In this document: in pieces, positions 138 through 7,647 of the stretch
Layout: each line of letters opens with the position of its first letter
Numbering within the stretch: the stretch's first letter is position 1
From: a virus
Taxonomy: Duplodnaviria; Heunggongvirae; Uroviricota; Caudoviricetes
Direction: 5' to 3' (one strand)
Virus record (IMG/VR): IMGVR_UViG_2740892235_000013
Length of the DNA stretch: 7,942 nt
Position numbers and translations under genes: made by a program
Notes under the pieces: generated by a model
Database searches by the model: none
The model's input: the letters and a program-made list of their open reading frames with translations, nothing else
What the model was told of the DNA's origin: nothing

Positions 138-147
138 NNNNNNNNNN
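138..147. other. Assembly gap (10 N); left and right flanks are not colinear
   Basis: Run of exactly 10 n. Left flank is a capsid 5' fragment, right flank is the 3' end of an unrelated ORF; unlike the other four gaps there is no tandem overlap across it. Confidence 0.9.
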
Positions 148-148
148 G

Positions 149-250
149 GATAACTTCGGAGACCTGAGAAAGGCAGTCGATCGCACTTATGCTGAAATGG
201 GTATGGATGGTGTAAGCGATGAAATATGGCGTAATTACACAGACAGCTAA
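149..250 (+). CDS. 3' terminal fragment (33 codons) of an unidentified upstream gene; 5' part lost in the gap
   Basis: Open frame from the gap edge, ...DNFGDLRKAVDRTYAEMGMDGVSDEIWRNYTDS, stop TAA 248-250, followed 6 nt later by a strong intrinsic terminator. A 33-codon open frame alone is weak evidence; the terminator placement supports it. Confidence 0.35.
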   Translation, partial: DNFGDLRKAVDRTYAEMGMDGVSDEIWRNYTDS

Positions 251-255
251 TCAAC

Positions 256-287
256 AGCCGGAGCAATCCGGCTTTTTGTTATTTTTT
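256..287 (+). terminator. Rho-independent terminator downstream of the upstream gene fragment
   Basis: Perfect 7-bp stem agccgga (256-262) / tccggct (267-273) with 4-nt loop gcaa, followed by a T-rich tract ttttgttatttttt. Confidence 0.7.
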
Positions 288-398
288 GTAAATTATTTGT
301 TCGTGGTTGTTCCACGTTGTTCACTGAGCGGATCGGCATATTTTACCCGAACTGAATCATGATTATTCTCGCCCGTGGTGCCAGGACGCTGGGGCCAC

Positions 399-446
399 TT
401 TCCCGCCTGTTAATGTGCCCGCCAATATTCATTACCAGGCGGGAAA
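399..446. promoter_or_regulatory. Perfect 11-bp inverted repeat with 26-nt spacer in the capsid leader; candidate operator or RNA structure
   Basis: tttcccgcctg (399-409) is the exact reverse complement of caggcgggaaa (436-446). It lies in a 287-bp non-coding leader (251-537) with no ORF on either strand. Confidence 0.3.
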
Positions 447-537
447 ACGATCGGTGCGATTGCTGATTTCCTTATGAAAAACGGTTGAGTGTTTGCCGCG
501 TCCTGGAGTTCCTTACTTAACCCCAGGACTTTTTTTT

Positions 538-1838
538 ATGCAGAGAATAATCGAATTACGCCAGCAGAAAACCGCCATTAAAAATCAGATGCGTGACATG
601 CTGGAGAACGCGGAAAAAGAAAACCGCAGTCTTAACGATGCTGAGGGCGCAAAATTTGACGAATTACGCGCTAAAGCTGAATCCCTCGATAAAGACATTT
701 CCCGCCTTGAAGCCATTGCAGACGAAGAGCGCAGCAAGCCAGGTAAAAGCAGTCAGACCACTGACCCCGCAGAACTACGAAACTACATTCTGACGGGTGA
801 AACCCGCGCATTAAGTACAGGCGTTCCCGCTGATGGTGGTTATACCGTTATCCCCGAGCTGAACACCGAAATCATGCGAATGCTGGCGGATGAGTCCACC
901 ATGCGCCGCATCTGTACCGTGAAGAAAATCAGCAGCAACGAGTTTAAGCAGCTTGTTTCCGCTGGCGGTGCGACCGTTAACCACGGTGAAGAGGGTAAGA
1001 CACGCGAACAGACCAGCACCCCGCAGATTAACGAGGTGAGCATTAAGCTGTATCCGGTCTATGCGTACCCGCGCACCACACAGGAAATCGTGGATTTTTC
1101 CGATGTGGACATCCTTTCATGGCTGACGGGTGAGATTGGCGACACCTTCACGGAAACCGAAGAAAGCGATCTGGTTGTGGGCGACGGTGACAAAAAAGCA
1201 AAAGGTTTTTTATCCGTACCCCGTGCAGAGAAGAACGACAAAGAGCGTGATTTTGGTTCGTTGCAGGTAATTAAACCTTCCGAATCTCTGGCGTGGACAT
1301 CTGCGGACCCGTTGATCGACCTGAAATTTGCATTACGTNNNNNNNNNNCTTTTTATCCGTACCCCGTGCAGAGAAGAACGACAAAGAGCGTGATTTTGGT
1401 ACGTTGCAGGTAATTAAACCTTCCGAATCTCTGGCGTGGACATCTGCGGACCCGTTGATCGACCTGAAATTTGCATTACGTAAAAAATACCGCAAAAACG
1501 CGGTCTGGGTGGTTAACTCCACGACGGCGGCAAAACTTCAGAAGGTGAAGAACGCGAACGGTGATTACATCTGGCGCGACCGTTTACAGGCGGGTGATCC
1601 TGATACGTTGCTGGGCCTTCCGGTCGAATATCTGGAGTTTATGCCTGATAACGTTATTGCCCTGGGTGACTTCAAACGCGGTTACTACATTGTTGATCAC
1701 GAAACAGGTGTTCGCACCAGACCGGACAACCTCACAGAGCCGGGCTTCATCAAAATTTTCACGCAGAAATATTTAGGCGGTGGCGTGGTGGATTCGAACG
1801 CGATCAAGATTCTGGAACTGCCACAGGACGACGATTAA
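538..1838 (+). CDS. Major capsid protein, HK97 fold (about 385 aa once the assembly duplication is collapsed)
   Basis: ATG 538 with AGGA 525-528 upstream; stop TAA 1836-1838. N-terminal coiled-coil delta-domain-like region (IIELRQQKTAIKNQMRDMLENAEKENRSLNDAEGAKFDELRAKAESLDKDISRLEAI), then HK97-capsid-like blocks (GGYTVIPEL, LVVGDGDKKAKGFL, YIWRDRLQAGDPDTLLGLPVEY, GDFKRGYYIVDHETG). The frame is broken only by the N run at 1339-1348 plus a 133-bp duplication (143 nt net, not a multiple of 3). Collapsed length is 1158 bp. Confidence 0.9.
1206..1481. repeat. Tandem near-identical overlap (1206-1338 and 1349-1481) around the 10-N gap at 1339-1348; assembly artefact inside the capsid gene
   Basis: The sequence right of the gap restarts 133 bp upstream of where the left copy ends. 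One substitution between copies (ggttcg vs ggtacg, Ser vs Thr). Confidence 0.85.
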
Positions 1839-1848
1839 CAGCATACAG

Positions 1849-1877
1849 AAGGGGCTTAAAAGCCCCTTTAGTGTTTT
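1849..1877 (+). terminator. Intrinsic terminator or attenuator immediately after the capsid gene
   Basis: 8-bp perfect stem aaggggct (1849-1856) / agcccctt (1861-1868), loop taaa, then tagtgtttt. The T tract is interrupted, so this may be a partial terminator. Confidence 0.6.
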
Positions 1878-1892
1878 ATGGGTGAAAAAATT

Positions 1893-2450
1893 ATGAAGAG
1901 TATGGAAATCCGGTCATCGGAAATCACCACCAGCGGAGCCGGTACGCTGACGGGCTACGTTGTTCGCTGGGATAAGCTTTCAGAACTGTTATGGGGTGAG
2001 TTTTACGAAAAATTCCAGCGGGGAGCGTTTACTGAATGGCTTGCAGCGGGTAATGACGTTCGCGGCCTGTATGAGCATGACCACAGCATGTTACTGGGGC
2101 GTACCCGTTCCGGCACGCTGAAACTGGAAGAGGACGAAACAGGGTTACGCTTTGAACTGACCCCACCGGATACCAGCACAGGGCGGGACGTTATCGAACT
2201 GGTTAAACGTGGTGATATATCCGGCATGAGCTTTGGCTTTCGTTCCCGTAAGGATGTATGGGATACCACAACAGAACCATGCGTGCGCACCGTGCTGGTG
2301 GCGGAACTGTACGAAATTACCGTTACATCCGTTCCGGCTTACCCTGATTCCGGCGTGGAGCTGGCCCGCCGTTCCCTGTATGAGCAGCACCCCGAAAAAA
2401 TGCCGCGTGCGGATAATCGCCGCTGGTGGGTGGATTTAGCGGGGGTGTGA
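1893..2450 (+). CDS. Prohead (head maturation) protease, HK97 family (peptidase S78-like)
   Basis: Family-typical His block (LYEHDHSMLLGRTRSGTL) and Ser block (DISGMSFGF). ATG 1893 has GGTGA 7 nt upstream; the in-frame ATG at 1878 has no RBS and sits inside the terminator T tract, so 1893 is preferred. Stop TGA 2448-2450. Confidence 0.88.
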   Translation: MKSMEIRSSEITTSGAGTLTGYVVRWDKLSELLWGEFYEKFQRGAFTEWLAAGNDVRGLYEHDHSMLLGRTRSGTLKLEEDETGLRFELTPPDTSTGRDVIELVKRGDISGMSFGFRSRKDVWDTTTEPCVRTVLVAELYEITVTSVPAYPDSGVELARRSLYEQHPEKMPRADNRRWWVDLAGV

Positions 2451-2451
2451 T

Positions 2452-3829
2452 ATGTGGCCTTTCAGAAGAAAAAAAGAGCAGCGCAGCATGACGCTTGATG
2501 AATTTATGGCGCTGGCTGGCACATCGAACACGGGGGCGGGTGAGTACGTATCATCGGGGACAGCGGAATCACTGCCCGCCGTCATGAACGCCGTCACGGT
2601 CATCTCTGAGGCGGTGGCTACCATGCCGTGTTACCTGTACCTGGTACGCAATGAGAAGGGGAAGGAGGCCCGCGAGTGGCTTGATTCTCATCCGGTCGAT
2701 CACATCCTCAACGAGCGCCCGAACGCATGGCAAACCCCCTACCAGTTTAAGCGAATGATGATCCGCCACTGCCTGTTAAACGGTAATGCTTATGCGGTGA
2801 TTCAGTGGGGGCGTGATGGTTTTCCGGTGGCTTTACATCCTTACCCGCCGCAGTCGGTGAACGTGGAGCAGACAGGTGAGCATAACTGGCGCTACTGCAT
2901 CACTGACGCCTACACCGGAAACACCCGCAACTATTTACCGTGGGAGGTTCTCCACCTTCGTTACTCCACGGATGACGGTTTTATGGGGCGCTCACCTGTA
3001 ACCATCTGCCGCGAATCGCTGGGGCTTGGGCTGGCCCAACAACGCCACGGCGCGAGCGTGATGCGTGATGGCATGATGGCGGCAGGGGTTATCACGTCAG
3101 GCGAATGGCTGGACGGCGTGAAGGGCAAACAGGCATTAGCCGCACTGGAACGCTACAAAGGGGCCAGAAACGCCGGAAAAACGCCCATCCTTGAAGGGGG
3201 TATGAGCTATCAGCAGCTGGGCATGAGTAATCAGGATGCTGAATGGCTGGCCTCCCGTCGCTTCACCATTGAAGACATCGCCCGAATGTTCAACGTCTCG
3301 CCGATTTTTTTNNNNNNNNNNTAAAGGGGCCAGAAACGCCGGAAAAACGCCCATCCTTGAAGGTGGCATGAGTTACCAGCAGCTGGGCATGAGTAACCAG
3401 GATGCTGAATGGCTGGCCTCCCGTCGCTTCACCATTGAAGACATCGCCCGAATGTTCAACGTCTCGCCGATTTTTTTGCAGGAATACAGCAACAGCACCT
3501 ACAGCAATTTCAGCGAGGCAAGCCGCGCATTTCTCACCATGACGATGCGCCCGTGGCTGGCGAACTTTGAGCAGCAGATAAAAAACGCCCTGCTGGTGGC
3601 CTCGCCTGTACCTGGTATCCGGTATCAGGTGGAGTTTGACAGCGCGGACCTGTTACGGGCCACACCTGGCGAACGCTTTGCCACCTATGAGCGCGGCATC
3701 AAATCCGGCGTTATGTGTCCGAACGAAGCCCGCGAACGTGAAGGACTGTCACCGCGTGATGGTGGTGATGAGTTCAGCCAGGCATGGAAACAGGAAGTAA
3801 AAATCAGCGAGGGAGAAAAACCGGAATGA
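2452..3829 (+). CDS. Portal protein, HK97 family (about 403 aa once the duplication is collapsed)
   Basis: ATG 2452 is 1 nt after the protease stop. Portal-like sequence throughout (RESLGLGLAQQ, GMSNQDAEWLASRRFTIEDIARMFNVSP, PWLANFEQQI). Frame broken only by the N run at 3312-3321 plus a 155-bp duplication (166 nt net). Stop TGA 3827-3829. Confidence 0.9.
3157..3477. repeat. Tandem near-identical overlap (3157-3311 and 3323-3477) around the 10-N gap at 3312-3321; assembly artefact inside the portal gene
   Basis: The copies differ at 5 positions, all synonymous third-codon changes (ggg/ggt, ggt/ggc, agc/agt, tat/tac, aat/aac). Confidence 0.85.
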
Positions 3830-4460
3830 ACATAGGGCGACTGCGTGACAGGGTAACGATTCAGACCCTGAAACAGACCAGGGATATAACCGGCGAAATA
3901 CTCGAAACGTGGGAGGACAGTCACACACTCTGGGCAAGCGTGAACATGGTCAGCAGCAAGGAGGCCATTTCATCGGGTGCAGAGCTGGCGATTGGTACCG
4001 TAAGGATCTGGATACGGTACCGGAAGGACATCAGCGCCACCAGCCGGATAAAGGTCAATACGGGGCCGCTGGCGGGGCGTGTACTGAATATCATCGGGCA
4101 GCCGCTGCCGGATGCCGCCAGGACACGCCTTGAAATTCNNNNNNNNNNATAACGATTCAGACCCTGAAACAGACCAGAGCCATGACGGGCGAAATACTCG
4201 AAACGTGGGAGGACGGTCACACACTCTGGGCAAGCGTGAACATGATCAGCAGCAAGGAGGCCATTTCATCGGGCGCAGAGCTGGCGATTGGTACCGTAAG
4301 GATCTGGATACGGTACCGGAAGGACATCAACGCCACCAGTCGGATAAAGGTCAGTACGGGGCCGCTGGCGGGGCGTGTACTGAATATCATCGGGCAGCCG
4401 CTGCCGGATGCCGCCAGGACACGCCTTGAAATTCTTTGTCGTGAGGGCGCGGAAAAATGA
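3826..4460 (+). CDS. Head-closure / head-tail joining protein (SPP1 gp16-like family), 112 aa once collapsed
   Basis: ATG 3826 overlaps the portal stop (ATGA). Family-like pattern LRDRVTIQ...GE..ETWED.HTLWASV...S.KEAISSGAELAIGTVRIWIRYRKDI. Frame interrupted by the N run at 4139-4148 plus a 286-bp duplication (296 nt net). Stop TGA 4458-4460. Confidence 0.8.
3854..4434. repeat. Tandem near-identical overlap (3854-4138 and 4150-4434) around the 10-N gap at 4139-4148; assembly artefact inside the head-closure gene
   Basis: About 10 substitutions between copies, including amino-acid changes (DI/AM, S/G, V/I, S/N, N/S) and synonymous changes. Confidence 0.85.
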
Positions 4461-4916
4461 CAGAAGAACTTATCACCCTGGAAGAAGTGAAACTCCATTG
4501 CCGCATCGATGGCGACGATGAAGACCAGTTAATCAGCGGATACATTGCCGCATCGCTTGAGGCGTGCCAGATACACATAGGCAGGCGCTTTGATGACGGG
4601 CTGGAGTTCACGCCAGCCATAAAGATTGGCTGCATGATGTTTATCGCTCACCTGTANNNNNNNNNNTATCGATGGCGACGAGGAAGACCAGTTAATCAGC
4701 GGATACATTGCCGCATCGCTTGAGGCGTGCCAGATACATATAGGCAGGCGCTTTGATGACGGGCTGGAGTTCACGCCAGCCATAAAGATTGGCTGCATGA
4801 TGTTTATCGCTCACCTGTATGAGAATCGCCAGATTGTCGCGGATAACGCAAAAACACGCGTACCCATGACGATTGGCGCACTCTGGACGGCTTACCGTGA
4901 TGTGGGGGTGTACTGA
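4457..4916 (+). CDS. gp6-like head-tail connector protein, 98 aa once collapsed
   Basis: ATG 4457 overlaps the upstream stop (ATGA). N-terminus MTEELITLEEVKLHCRIDGDDEDQLISGYIAASLEA is typical of gp6-like connectors. Frame interrupted by the N run at 4657-4666 plus a 152-bp duplication (163 nt net). Stop TGA 4914-4916. Confidence 0.75.
4505..4819. repeat. Tandem near-identical overlap (4505-4656 and 4668-4819) around the 10-N gap at 4657-4666; assembly artefact inside the connector gene
   Basis: Two substitutions between copies: gat/gag (Asp/Glu) and cac/cat (synonymous). Confidence 0.85.
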
Positions 4917-5356
4917 TGCCGTGGCAACCATTAAGACGATGCACAGAACCAGGCTGTAACAGGCGCGTTAAATCCGGCAAGTGTGAGGAGCACAGGCGGG
5001 CGGCATGGCGTGCAGAGGATGCCAGACGAGGACACCGCCGCGCGCGTGGATATTCCAGACAGTGGGACAAATACCGCGCCATGTATCTGAGTAAAAACCC
5101 GTTATGCGTGCGATGCCTTGAGAAGGGGATATATACGCCCGCCGTGGTGGTGGATCACATTATCCCGATTAATGGCGGTGATGATGTTCTCTTCTGGCCC
5201 GAATGGAACCATCAACCATTGTGCCAGGCGTGTCATAACCAGAAAACGAAATGGCTTGATCCGGCAACAAAAAGCAAGCGTGCCGCAGGTGGATTTCGTG
5301 AAGAGGAAGAACGGGCCGCTAACCGCAATAACTGGATGTATGACGCTGATGAATGA
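4916..5356 (+). CDS. HNH endonuclease (phage packaging-associated type), 146 aa
   Basis: ATG 4916 overlaps the connector stop (TGATG). Cys-rich N-terminus (CTEPGCNRRVKSGKCEEH) and HNH core (VVDHIIPINGG...NHQPLCQACHNQKT). Stop TGA 5354-5356. Confidence 0.9.
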   Translation: MPWQPLRRCTEPGCNRRVKSGKCEEHRRAAWRAEDARRGHRRARGYSRQWDKYRAMYLSKNPLCVRCLEKGIYTPAVVVDHIIPINGGDDVLFWPEWNHQPLCQACHNQKTKWLDPATKSKRAAGGFREEEERAANRNNWMYDADE

Positions 5357-5522: not shown

Positions 5523-5645
5523 TGAGGCTGTATGACGGGGTGGGGGGCGTTTTCAGGACCAACCCGACCCCGCCGGGCACCGAACGCCTCCTCAAATTTT
5601 TATGCACGGGAATTTTTTGAAAAATAATCTGGCGAAAAAATAAGC
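5523..5645. promoter_or_regulatory. Non-coding spacer upstream of terS; candidate cos/packaging-initiation region
   Basis: 123 bp with no ORF. G-run gacggggtggggggcgttttcagg followed by C-rich caacccgaccccgccgggcaccg, then an AT-rich tract (aaatttttatgcacgggaattttttgaaaaataat). Sits between HNH and terS, where cos lies in HK97-type phages. Confidence 0.35.
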
Positions 5646-6002
5646 ATGGCAAGACCACCGAAAGCCCCCGCCTACCTGGATGATATCGCCGTGAAGCAGT
5701 GGCGGGAAAAATCGCGGCAGCTTGCGGAACGGGGAGACCTGACCCCCGCCGACTGGAGCAATCTGGAACTGTATTGTGTCAACTACTCCATTTACCGGAA
5801 AGCCGTTGCAGACCTTGCGGCGCGCGGGTTCAGCATTGTTAACAGTCAGGGCGGCGAGAGCAGAAACCCCGCATTAAGCGCAAAATCCGACGCTGAAAGA
5901 GTGATGATAAAAATGGCCTCCTTGCTCGGTTTTGACCCGATAAGCCGCCGTAAAAATCCACCGGAAACAGAAGAAGAGGACGAGCTTGACCGCCTGGAAT
6001 AA
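5646..6002 (+). CDS. terS: Terminase small subunit, P27 family, 118 aa
   Basis: ATG 5646, stop TAA 6000-6002. P27-family-like pattern (LTPADWSNLELYCVNYSIYRKA...NPALSAKSDAERVMIKMASLLGFDPISRRK) with an acidic C-terminus. Confidence 0.85.
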   Translation: MARPPKAPAYLDDIAVKQWREKSRQLAERGDLTPADWSNLELYCVNYSIYRKAVADLAARGFSIVNSQGGESRNPALSAKSDAERVMIKMASLLGFDPISRRKNPPETEEEDELDRLE

Positions 6003-7647
6003 GTACGCAGAAGACGTAAAAACGGGCAAAATTCCGGCCTGTAAACGGCTGAAACAGGCCGTTAAACGGTACTTTTCGGACCTTGAAAGCCCCCTTTACA
6101 CGTTCGATCGTGAGGTTGTGGAGCGGTTTATTGCCTTTTCCAGGGTGTGCCCGCACGTAAAAGGGCCGATGCGTGGCAGACCCATTGAGCTGGAGCCGTG
6201 GCAGCAGTTCGCCTTTGCGTGCATCCTCGGCTTTAAGGTTAAGGCCACCGGACGGCGCAAATACACGAGCGCCTTTATCGAAGTGCCGCGCAAAAATGCG
6301 AAATCCACGACCGCCGCGATTCTGGCTAACTGGTTTCTGATTATGGAGAACGGGCAGCAGGATATTTACACCGCAGCGGTGAGCCGTGACCAGGCGCGGA
6401 TCGTTTTTGATGATGCGCGTCAGATGTGCCTTTTATCCCGACCGTTACGCAGGCGGGTGAATATTCAGGCCCACAAGGTGATGCACCCGAAAAGCAACAG
6501 CCTGTTAAAGCCGCTGGCAGCAAAAGCGGCAACCATCGAGGGAACAAACCCCAGCCTTTCCATCGTGGACGAATACCACCTACACCCCGATAACGGCGTT
6601 TATTCCGCGCTTGAGCTGGGGATGGGCGCACGTCCCGAAGGGCTGTTATTTGCCATTACCACATCGGGCAGTAACGTCGTTTCAGCCTGTAAACAGCACT
6701 ATGATTATTGCTGCCAGATCCTGGACGGCGAAGAGGTCAATGATTCAATTTTTGTGCTGATTTACGAGCTGGACGACGAAAACGAGGTTGATGATCCGGC
6801 GATGTGGATAAAGGCTAACCCTAACATCGATGTTTCCGTGGATCGTGAAAAACTGGCCTCAACCATCCAGAAAGCGCGGGGTATTCCGTCGCAATGGGTG
6901 GAGATGATGACAAAGCGATTTAATATCTGGTGCCAGGGGGCTACCCCGTGGATGGGTAACGGCGCATGGGCTGAGTGTGCCGGAACGTTCACGGAGGAAG
7001 ATTTACACGGGCAGGAGTGTTACGCGGGGCTGGACTTATCATCAACCAGCGATATTTCCAGCGTGTGCTATGCCTTTCCGGTCGGTAAAAATATCATGCT
7101 GGTTTCCCGTCATTATCTGCCGGAGTTCCAGCTACAGAACCCCGCCAATAAAAACCGCGCTGTCTATCGCCAGTGGGCTAAAGCGGGCTGGATACGCACA
7201 ACGCCAGGTGACTGCATTGATTACGACCGGATCAGAGATGACATCATGCAGGATGCGGAGAAATTTAATATCAGGCTGGTGGGCTTTGATACGTGGAACG
7301 CCACGCATCTCAGGACGCAATTACAGGGGGCTGGTTTTGAGGTGGAGCCGTTCCCGCAAACCTACCTCAGATTCAGTCCGGCGGCGAAATCGTTCGAAGT
7401 TTTTGTTAACCGCAGGGTGATTGTGCATCGTGGCGATCCGGTGTTGTCCTGGTCGATGAGTAACGTCGTGATGCAGAGTGACGCGAACGCCAATATCAAG
7501 CCGAACAAGAAAAAATCACCGAACAAGATAGACCCGAGCGTAGCGGCGCTGATGGCGTTTGGTACATTCCAGGCAGAGCATGAGGATTTTGCTTTTGATA
7601 TAAGCGACAGCCACCGCCAGAAACTGGAAGAATTTAGCGGGGTGTAA
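5986..7647 (+). CDS. terL: Terminase large subunit, 553 aa
   Basis: TTG 5986 is the only start codon in frame after the upstream stop at 5941-5943; it overlaps terS by 17 nt with a purine-rich stretch (gaagaagagga) upstream. N-terminal blocks typical of this terminase family (YAEDVKTGKIPACKRLKQAVKRY, HVKGPMRGRPIELEPWQQF), P-loop-like PRKNAKSTTAA, acidic nuclease-domain residues downstream. Stop TAA 7645-7647. Confidence 0.9.
   Translation: MTAWNKYAEDVKTGKIPACKRLKQAVKRYFSDLESPLYTFDREVVERFIAFSRVCPHVKGPMRGRPIELEPWQQFAFACILGFKVKATGRRKYTSAFIEVPRKNAKSTTAAILANWFLIMENGQQDIYTAAVSRDQARIVFDDARQMCLLSRPLRRRVNIQAHKVMHPKSNSLLKPLAAKAATIEGTNPSLSIVDEYHLHPDNGVYSALELGMGARPEGLLFAITTSGSNVVSACKQHYDYCCQILDGEEVNDSIFVLIYELDDENEVDDPAMWIKANPNIDVSVDREKLASTIQKARGIPSQWVEMMTKRFNIWCQGATPWMGNGAWAECAGTFTEEDLHGQECYAGLDLSSTSDISSVCYAFPVGKNIMLVSRHYLPEFQLQNPANKNRAVYRQWAKAGWIRTTPGDCIDYDRIRDDIMQDAEKFNIRLVGFDTWNATHLRTQLQGAGFEVEPFPQTYLRFSPAAKSFEVFVNRRVIVHRGDPVLSWSMSNVVMQSDANANIKPNKKKSPNKIDPSVAALMAFGTFQAEHEDFAFDISDSHRQKLEEFSGV

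Follow-up and report, generated by a model that had tools for sequence, protein, structure and literature searches.

How can one operon supply roughly 20 times more shell protein than portal protein, and does the answer lie directly behind the capsid gene? The question is raised by the window analysed in this study, a stretch of 7,942 nucleotides (IMG/VR virus record IMGVR_UViG_2740892235_000013). Analysis of its six-frame open reading frames (ORFs), of Pfam matches and of megablast hits against complete Escherichia coli genomes revealed the packaging module of an E. coli capsid-forming phage-inducible chromosomal island (cf-PICI) of the CP-933C/EcCIEDL933 type. In this module a hairpin lies between the gene for the HK97-fold major capsid protein and the gene for the prohead protease. 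An earlier note on this DNA had proposed that the hairpin is a partial terminator yielding capsid transcript in excess of the downstream genes, and that this could be the functional logic of the inverted capsid-protease-portal order. Our analysis points to a selected RNA element at the capsid/protease junction, which probably makes capsid mRNA more plentiful than that of the downstream genes, which may act as a leaky terminator, as a protector of the capsid message or as both, and which resembles hairpins found behind the capsid genes of phages with the canonical order.

The hairpin behind the capsid gene

The hairpin at 1848-1869 reads GAAGGGGCU-UAAA-AGCCCCUUU, with nine pairs of which five are G-C, and begins 10 nt past the capsid stop codon TAA (1836-1838). 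Its 3' flank is AGUGUUUUAU, and the sequence given right after the 9-bp hairpin is UUUAGUGUUUU. Folded alone the hairpin has about -13.8 kcal/mol; its 71-nt context has -18.3 kcal/mol (z = -3.6), and none of 200 shuffles folded as well. With this fold, and with Pfam confirming the capsid, protease and portal genes, the stem-loop described after the capsid gene and ahead of protease and portal proved to be real. The capsid-protease spacer, counted up to the protease start at 1893, measures 54 nt and is the sole substantial spacer in the head-gene block; the remaining head-gene junctions are overlaps or gaps of no more than 2 nt. The GC-rich stem and its loop fall within the range of intrinsic terminators (about 5-14 bp, loop of 3-8 nt), and the placement is likewise that of an intrinsic terminator, in sense orientation, intergenic and 3' of a stop codon. 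Rfam was searched with the window and five loci, first at gathering thresholds and then with relaxed E-values on 148-2000; these searches found no family matching the hairpin or the leader at gathering score, the best sub-threshold match having E >= 1.

Conservation of the hairpin in related islands

A degenerate-pattern scan with one genome per species identified 80 loci in Enterobacterales and Orbales, with capsids 63-98% identical. The surveyed genera include Shigella, Citrobacter, Proteus, Providencia, Xenorhabdus, Photorhabdus, Serratia, Erwinia, Pantoea, Enterobacter, Kluyvera, Kosakonia, Rahnella, Gilliamella and Frischella. The protease gene directly follows the capsid gene in all 80 loci, and a hairpin stands directly 3' of the capsid stop codon in 69 of them, one of which (L080) was counted by eye. 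The consensus form in the family is AGGGGC-loop-GCCCCUU. Pair statistics were taken from an anchored pair table, as MAFFT misregistered hairpins of unequal loop length. Among 53 distinct sequences the core is GGGG(C/U)...(G/A)CCCC and every core cell is a standard pair. The loop is closed by C-G (34), U-G (10), U-A (4), G-C (3) or A-U (2), and both core changes from G-C to A-U and G-U wobbles were found, each in single sequences. The same sequences contain 25 loop variants, and 15 of these variants are C(UNCG)G tetraloops. A different hairpin, 14 bp long and with a T5-6 run, takes this place in four Proteus loci.

Ten columns of the hairpin are at least 90% conserved. As a synonymous control, 27 four-fold degenerate sites in invariant capsid codons were analysed; the commonest base had a mean frequency of 0.56 and none of these sites reached 0.9. 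Judged against this control, purifying selection acts on the stem of the hairpin. Its UNCG loops and wobble pairs indicate that RNA and not DNA is the level of selection, and the sequence comparison as a whole points to a selected RNA element at this junction.

The GGGGC/GCCCC core is palindromic and unusually invariant, which would also suit an element that works as DNA or binds a protein, for instance a recombination hotspot or a site for packaging or related to cos. However, the loops are mostly RNA-specific UNCG and GNRA-type tetraloops, and the stem varies by G-U wobbles, which RNA tolerates and DNA cruciforms do not. Furthermore, the site is always sense-oriented and confined to the spacer that runs from the capsid stop codon to the ribosome-binding site of the protease gene, and for HNH-cos packaging the cos region is presumably to be expected elsewhere, in the gap between the HNH and small terminase genes (5523-5645). 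A cos or pac role was rejected in view of where the site lies, its G-U changes and its RNA-type tetraloops, and a DNA-level element is in our estimate highly improbable.

Strength of the hairpin as a terminator

Terminator strength was assessed by a d'Aubenton-Carafa-type discriminant (d) with modern ViennaRNA energies, so that the zero point is approximate. Only two plus-strand sites in the window have d > 0, both intergenic: the capsid hairpin (d = +1.0, T-score 3.2, unrounded 3.16) and the terminator after perC (d = +37, T-score 5.0, unrounded 5.02). The T-rich tract that had been noted behind the stem-loop is present but interrupted, the U-tract after the GC core reading UUU AGUG UUUU, and on these values the hairpin is a borderline intrinsic terminator and not a canonical one. 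An intrinsic terminator would be expected to have some 7-9 nt of U-rich sequence directly behind its stem. A weak U-tract of this kind fits a partial terminator. A generic terminator scan of the window gave no excess of sites (10 against 9.8 expected), and the case for the hairpin therefore rests on its position and conservation, not on the count.

Comparison across the family revealed a similar picture. Of the distinct sites at the capsid 3' end 32 of 73 have d > 0, with a median of -0.5. The family U-tract usually comprises 3-5 U, two or three of which pair with upstream A, and is followed by the protease ribosome-binding site. T-scores at this site are mostly about 1.8-3.8, compared with about 4.4-5.3 for well-scoring upstream terminators of the same elements. 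Good U-tracts are found in Proteus and in the Enterobacter/Kluyvera group, with d = +17 to +29. The combination of a strong stem and a weak U-tract across the family would fit either leaky termination or a barrier to message decay.

Comparison with phages and the order of the head genes

The phage capsids nearest to those of the islands are distant, the true phage capsids sampled being at most about 34% identical. A GC-rich hairpin nevertheless follows the capsid gene in seven of eight sampled phages with the portal-protease-capsid order, in spacers of 33-72 nt and mostly with a T-rich stretch after it. The seven are HK97, vB_EcoM-689R6, S.Typ Adana, Burkholderia PhiBt-E264.1, the Desulfofustis phage, Vibrio K237 and Azospirillum Cd; the eighth, Streptococcus Javan93, has no hairpin after its capsid gene. 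The layout found in the window, a hairpin at the capsid stop codon among co-oriented structural genes with no promoter-like site between, also occurs in HK97, SPP1 and six other phages. The stems are alike in kind (GGGGC../..GCCCC), and the 9-mer ATGGGTGAA is shared with vB_EcoM-689R6; such stems are too short for homology testing.

The HK97 record (NC_002167) annotates a 'terminator, putative' at 5192-5213, directly after gp5 (major capsid), and further terminators after the portal gene, the tail terminator protein gene, the major tail protein gene and gp15. The hairpin after gp5 (GGGCGGG-GAAA-CCCGCCC followed by UUUU) lies about 10 nt from the capsid stop codon with the next gene close by, and the capsid fold and type of head module are the same as in the window. 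In HK97, however, the capsid gene comes last and the hairpin parts head-shell genes from connector and tail genes, whereas in the window it parts the capsid gene from protease, portal and terminase. The HK97 site is likewise a sequence prediction, and usable literature discussion of terminator function in the HK97 late operon was not found.

Other phages provide further parallels. In T7 the terminator T-phi after gene 10 is a leaky hairpin terminator: some polymerases pass it and transcribe the structural genes further on, so that capsid message is made in excess. A local promoter and, right behind the gene, a strong terminator are described for the capsid gene of T7-like phages such as LUZ100 and of T7 itself (PMC10134795). 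A capsid promoter of its own, a stem-loop at the 5' end of the mRNA and a hairpin terminator are common to these phages and the window, where all three are predicted from sequence. The T7 arrangement differs in its own single-subunit RNA polymerase and class-specific terminators, while the window would depend on the host polymerase and has a weak U-tract, and there is no homology between the two. In SPP1, late gene clusters are bounded by stem-loop terminators, and a predicted Rho-independent terminator (8775-8815) overlaps the stop codon of capsid gene 13 (7803-8777) and precedes gene 14 (PMC6316719). Its stem GAGGGGC-UAAC-GCCUCUC resembles that of the window; SPP1 differs in its Gram-positive host, its long U7 tract and a capsid gene that is not first in its cluster.

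Head modules of tailed phages thus commonly have a hairpin or terminator behind the capsid gene, and such sites have been annotated before; the window hairpin is an undescribed cf-PICI instance of this known phage design. Although EcCIEDL933/CP-933C/OI-51 is the element itself, neither the hairpin nor the structured leader is described in the cf-PICI papers searched; these papers leave promoters, terminators and transcripts of the packaging operon unmentioned, and the CP-933C/OI-51 papers searched contain no transcript map.

The sequence behind the stem is also similar between phages and islands. In vB_EcoM-689R6 and S.Typ Adana (L083 5108-5143; L085 about 3590-3645) the capsid gene is followed by hairpin-TGTTCTGA(T/C)(G/A)GGTGA(A/G)G(A/G)(A)ATCATG. 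The window has a similar arrangement at 1862-1895, hairpin-TAGTGTTTTATGGGTGAAAAAATTATG, with the 9-mer in the 3' flank of the stem. When the capsid gene moved, it may have carried along the hairpin and the ribosome-binding site behind it.

The presence of hairpins in phages of the canonical order suggests that the hairpin came with the capsid gene and probably predates the rearrangement, and this bears on the proposal that the order capsid-protease-portal was selected to place the capsid gene between a promoter and a partial terminator. The arrangement itself would suit that proposal. The capsid gene comes first after a promoter-like region, the hairpin parts it from all lower-copy genes, and comparison with HK97 (538-4916 of the window against 2056-5883 of L082) revealed that both sub-blocks are reversed in order on the same strand: capsid-protease-portal here against portal-protease-capsid in HK97, and closure-connector here against adaptor-closure in HK97. 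The order of the HNH, small terminase and large terminase genes is unchanged. Against the proposal, similar hairpins accompany seven of the eight canonical-order phages, one of them annotated in HK97; Firmicute cf-PICIs have other gene orders (10.1101/2022.09.08.507074); and the hairpin has been lost in 11 loci that retain the inverted order. The hairpin as the logic of the inverted order is not supported by these comparisons, and we consider this explanation quite unlikely.

The capsid leader

The region ahead of the capsid gene was analysed for the promoter and leader of the proposed unit. A scan of the window found no plus-strand sigma-70-like promoter, including downstream of the capsid gene, and the promoter was therefore deduced by comparison with relatives. 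The putative promoter (Table 1) matches 8 of 12 consensus positions by reading, under the scan threshold of 9 of 12, and corresponds without gaps to the block TCATG..TAT(C/A/G)TT, 5 nt and P1 of the commonest leader class in the family, class A. Transcription would then start near 375 and leave a 5' untranslated region (UTR) of about 163 nt. Many relatives have a good terminator 60-180 nt before the capsid AUG, followed by a conserved promoter-like region, and the capsid gene probably starts its own transcription unit. Of the earlier description of the capsid gene as first in its operon behind a 287-bp leader, the first half is probably correct, given the upstream terminator and the promoter-like block. 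The second half did not stand: 251-537 is an intergenic region that holds the perC terminator, the TTGTTC repeats, the weak promoter-like site and the predicted UTR.

Class A leaders (26 distinct sequences from at least 12 genera, e.g. L003:3821-4006 and L084:5065-5250; range L003-L081) consist of the -10-like TCATG..TAT(C/A/G)TT, 5 nt, the stem-loop P1 (GUGGCACUCAGACGUGAGCCGCCAC), a long variable hairpin P2 and a hairpin P3 that lies right against the start codon. Covariation was found in P1 and P2, with 11 pairs changed on both sides; none of 500 shuffles reached the observed value, and slid controls gave 2-3. Eight of nine P2 pairs covary. In the window P1 shares its layout and its GACG loop with class A, but both partners have changed in three inner pairs. 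When the class A promoter and P1 were modelled together, the covariance model gave a sole match in the window, at 357-399, which was weak (8.5 bits, E about 1), and none with default filters. Homology of the window P1 to that of class A is suggested by these similarities.

In the window the 3' arm of P3 (GUCCUGG...CCAGGAC) contains the AGGA Shine-Dalgarno sequence (525-528), and a U8 run follows. P3-U8 has the look of a terminator or else of a translational operator, and its U-run could be a translational enhancer. A hairpin abutting the start codon also occurs in leader classes A and C, without the U-run. Upstream, a TTGTTC block of about 50 bp is common to the window and the divergent E. coli cf-PICI L084 (5027-5056), whose leaders otherwise differ; apart from this block the L084 leader is class A. 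The repeats are likely to be a candidate binding site for an activator, perhaps PerC or AlpA.

A further pairing was noted in this region. The segment GATTATTCTCGC (361-372) is complementary to the first capsid codons GCAGAGAATAATC (540-552), and the predicted fold of 330-560 closes the leader through this helix. This pairing was set aside, as the segment lies upstream of the deduced start and would pair only in read-through transcripts.

Proposed mechanism and alternatives

In the shell built by these islands, one vertex of a T=4 lattice with 240 positions is replaced by a portal of 12 subunits (10.1101/2025.02.11.637232). The reading that we favour explains how capsid message could come to exceed the rest. 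A weak and probably activator-dependent promoter about 165 nt before the capsid AUG would start transcription of the module. At the hairpin (1848-1869) and its interrupted U-tract a fraction of polymerases would stop at about 1870-1877, making the first product a capsid-only mRNA of about 1.5 kb bounded by P1 and the hairpin. Polymerases that read through would supply protease, portal, connectors, HNH and terminase. Remaining at the 3' end of the capsid message, the hairpin would shield this message from 3' exonucleases, and P1 would protect the 5' end. The net effect would be more capsid mRNA than downstream mRNA, in line with about 235 capsid subunits per 12 portal subunits, and would presumably carry over to the protein ratio. 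The device would have been inherited from HK97-like phages and would not be tied to the inverted order. Surplus capsid mRNA would be useful, since the Shine-Dalgarno pairing of the capsid gene (-4.0 kcal/mol, partly sequestered) is weaker than that of the portal gene (-9.9 kcal/mol), and for the same reason the capsid excess is unlikely to stem from Shine-Dalgarno pairing. A leaky terminator whose hairpin also protects the 3' end has, taken as a whole, about an even chance of being the right account.

Several observations weigh against this account. In many relatives the tract is only UUU and then CCAAG, d falls as low as about -45, and little termination would be expected. The hairpin is missing from 11 of the 80 loci, which have spacers of 7-21 nt and retain the ribosome-binding site, and at least 8 of these 11 keep full-length capsid, protease and portal; with head genes intact in such loci, the hairpin must be modulatory or dispensable and not essential. 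P3-U8, ahead of the capsid gene, outscores the capsid 3' hairpin as a terminator (+21 against +1.0), so that a simple picture of a promoter followed by the capsid gene would be incomplete. The island encodes an AlpA-family protein, and were induced transcription antiterminated, the hairpin would not terminate. Finally, transcript data for the element are absent from the literature searched.

Some of these observations would be accommodated if the hairpin were a stability barrier only. Polymerase would then be terminator-resistant, through AlpA-type antitermination or read-through from upstream, and the capsid excess would arise by differential decay: the spacer would be cleaved endonucleolytically, the hairpin would block 3'-to-5' exonucleases and P1 would guard the 5' end. 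What the family conserves is a stable stem, including UNCG loops, while the U-tract is often only 2-3 U, and hairpins flank the capsid cistron on both sides in leader classes A and C and in the window's own leader. HK97 similarly brackets its protease-capsid and major-tail genes with annotated hairpins. The HK97 late operon is Q-antiterminated, and its hairpins would then be expected to act as exonuclease barriers. The terminator-like sites before the capsid gene (257-272 and 500-537) would call for antitermination, and AlpA of Pseudomonas is a processive antiterminator (PMC7969949, PMC9371919). However, a role of the E. coli PICI AlpA as an antiterminator, or at the capsid promoter, is a supposition; the conserved promoter-like block just before P1 makes read-through from upstream unneeded; and where the U-tract is good, in Proteus and the Enterobacter/Kluyvera group, the site resembles a true terminator. 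A pure stability barrier is the main alternative, though on this balance less likely than not.

The hairpin-less loci, most with full-length capsid, protease and portal, could also suggest that the hairpin is an inherited passenger or insulator with a minor role, such as uncoupling capsid from protease translation or blocking stray transcription, and with no stoichiometric effect. The capsid-to-portal ratio would then be set by translation initiation, assembly kinetics and proteolysis. This would agree with the borderline or negative d of most relatives, and with the canonical-order phages, which have the hairpin where lowering portal and protease relative to capsid is impossible. But the strong purifying selection relative to synonymous sites, the compensatory changes and the tetraloop turnover exceed what is expected of a passenger, and Proteus swapped in a different hairpin at the same site. 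Moreover, with a capsid Shine-Dalgarno that is weak and partly sequestered, that pairing alone cannot account for an excess of about 20-fold. A passenger role is unlikely, and a leaky terminator or protector is retained as the favoured account.

Genes of the window and identity of the element

The features of the window are listed in Table 1. Pfam matches were found for all eight genes of the packaging module. The gene at 538-1838 is indeed a capsid gene, as it had been called, but not a single ORF as given: the six-frame ORFs listed for the capsid region are 493-1413 and 1293-1838, and the frame is broken by an N10 run and a duplicate. Five N10 runs occur in the window (138-147, 1339-1348, 3312-3321, 4139-4148 and 4657-4666), four of which are followed by a near-copy (2-12 mismatches) of the preceding 133-286 nt, and bases 1-137 repeat the 5' end of the capsid gene (538-674) with two mismatches. 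The duplicates and gap flanks break the capsid, portal, head-closure and connector ORFs. Collapsing 1339-1481 restores an intact capsid ORF of 385 amino acids, the length annotated in the matching island. The duplications reflect an uncollapsed scaffold, with two related islands in one genome as the probable source. The hairpin is unaffected by the artefact.

Table 1. Features of the window (nt, nucleotides; d, terminator discriminant; L001, matching island of E. coli RM10042).
Feature	Coordinates	Strand	Basis and remarks
PerC-family regulator gene, 3' end	148..250	+	RefSeq annotation of L001; Pfam PF06069, E = 2e-44 on L001 protein
Strong intrinsic terminator after perC, GCCGGAGCAAUCCGGC then UUUUUGUUAUUUUUU	257..288	+	Scan; stem 257-272 and T-run; top d and T-score of scan
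Three TTGTTC direct repeats, 10 nt apart	297-302, 307-312, 317-322	+	Read from sequence
Putative weak promoter	342..369	+	-35 TTTACC 342-347, 16-nt spacer, -10 TATTCT 364-369; inferred from relatives
P1, predicted 5'-terminal stem-loop, GUGGU.CCAG-GACG-CUGG.GCCAC	375..398	+	-15.6 kcal/mol
P2, long leader hairpin	399..446	+	-22.6 kcal/mol; at class A P2 position
P3 hairpin (500-529) and U8 (530-537), directly before capsid AUG	500..537	+	-12.7 kcal/mol; d = +21
HK97-fold major capsid gene	538..1838	+	Pfam PF05065, E = 2e-61; L001 annotation of 385-aa major capsid protein
Scaffolding artefact within capsid gene	1339-1481		N10 and 133-nt near-duplicate; 1349-1481 repeats 1206-1338 with 2 mismatches
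Capsid 3' hairpin and interrupted U-tract	1848..1877	+	Stem 1848-1856/1861-1869, loop 1857-1860, GC core 1851-1866, U-tract 1867-1877
Prohead protease gene	1893..2450	+	Pfam PF04586; RefSeq start 1878
Portal	2452-3829	+	Pfam and L001 RefSeq
Head closure	3826-4460	+	Pfam and L001 RefSeq
gp6-like connector	4457-4916	+	Pfam and L001 RefSeq
HNH	4916-5356	+	Pfam and L001 RefSeq
Small terminase	5646-6002	+	Pfam and L001 RefSeq
Large terminase	5986-7647	+	Pfam and L001 RefSeq

The protease start at 1893, which the earlier note had used in place of RefSeq 1878, is supported by our analysis. It aligns with the MK(N/S).(F/E)EIR start of relatives and has a GGGUGA Shine-Dalgarno sequence (-3.7 kcal/mol), unlike 1878, which has none (-0.1 kcal/mol) and overlaps the U-tract. 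The start at 1893 is the likelier one, and the RefSeq annotation is probably five codons too long. Position 7647, where the earlier note ended its downstream range, is the last base of the large terminase gene, and the portal gene already stops at 3829. A non-coding, G-rich gap of 123 nt (5523-5645, GGGGTGGGGGGCG...CCCGACCCCGCCGGGC) separates the HNH/small-ORF block from the gene for the small terminase.

The matching chromosomal island, L001, is about 15.5 kb long and lies in tqsA of E. coli RM10042; the first 1191 bases compared are 100% identical to the window. Its genes run in the order integrase, AlpA-family regulator (a helix-turn-helix protein; PF05930, E = 5e-18), Icd-like, RepA helicase, SSB and PerC-family regulator, followed by the packaging genes for capsid, protease, portal, head-closure, gp6-like connector, HNH, small terminase and large terminase. 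No tail or lysis genes are annotated in it. An island of 10-15 kb with an integrase beside regulators including alpA, a replication module and an HK97-type packaging module without tail or lysis genes is what defines a cf-PICI (10.1101/2022.09.08.507074), and all of these were found in L001. Induction dependent on a helper phage and transfer with hijacked tails were shown experimentally for EcCIEDL933 in the cf-PICI preprints; the copy in the window is known from sequence alone. The window leader is 97-98% identical to copies in O157:H7 genomes, and a homologous Xenorhabdus capsid is labelled 'capsid protein of prophage CP-933C' in one source. CP-933C, also known as O-island 51, is a cryptic prophage about 15 kb long with a gene for the PerC homologue PchE (PMC3378721); CP-933C and EcCIEDL933 are, we infer, the same element.

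Two observations concern the genomic setting of relatives. The Rosenbergiella island (L003 130-566) adjoins two 5S rRNA genes and a tRNA gene identified by Rfam, unlike the tqsA context in E. coli. Single Xenorhabdus genomes contain four or five copies of the capsid module, with differing leader classes and with the 3' hairpin present or absent: X. anantnagensis (L015, L017, L029, L037, L039), X. mauleonii (L048, L050, L053, L054) and X. innexi (L026, L035, L041, L055, L056). The load of cf-PICI-like elements in these genomes is unusually high.

Implications

If the hairpin is a leaky terminator or a decay barrier, it would give a simple handle on how these islands produce shell protein in about 20-fold excess over portal from a single operon, and it would be a concrete, mutable site in EcCIEDL933-type islands, which build their own T=4 capsids. 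The result extends a familiar phage design to cf-PICIs, and a special explanation of the gene order is no longer needed.

A bolder proposal would make the capsid cistron of proteobacterial cf-PICIs an autonomous hairpin-bounded cassette. The structured 5' UTR would gate the making of capsid protein in response to a factor of the helper phage or the island, with attenuation, antitermination or translational control as possible means, the 3' hairpin would fix the ratio of about 20:1, and the capsid-first order with both RNA elements would be a design specific to the satellites. As a joint claim this is improbable. The structured capsid leader is nonetheless the more novel lead of the two RNA elements. 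In the lineage of the window the TTGTTC repeats, as a candidate operator, and the terminator-like P3-U8 are, besides the 5' UTR, the more unusual features. The covarying, unannotated and promoter-proximal 5' UTR of cf-PICI capsid operons, found in many Enterobacterales, is a candidate control point for commitment to capsid formation.

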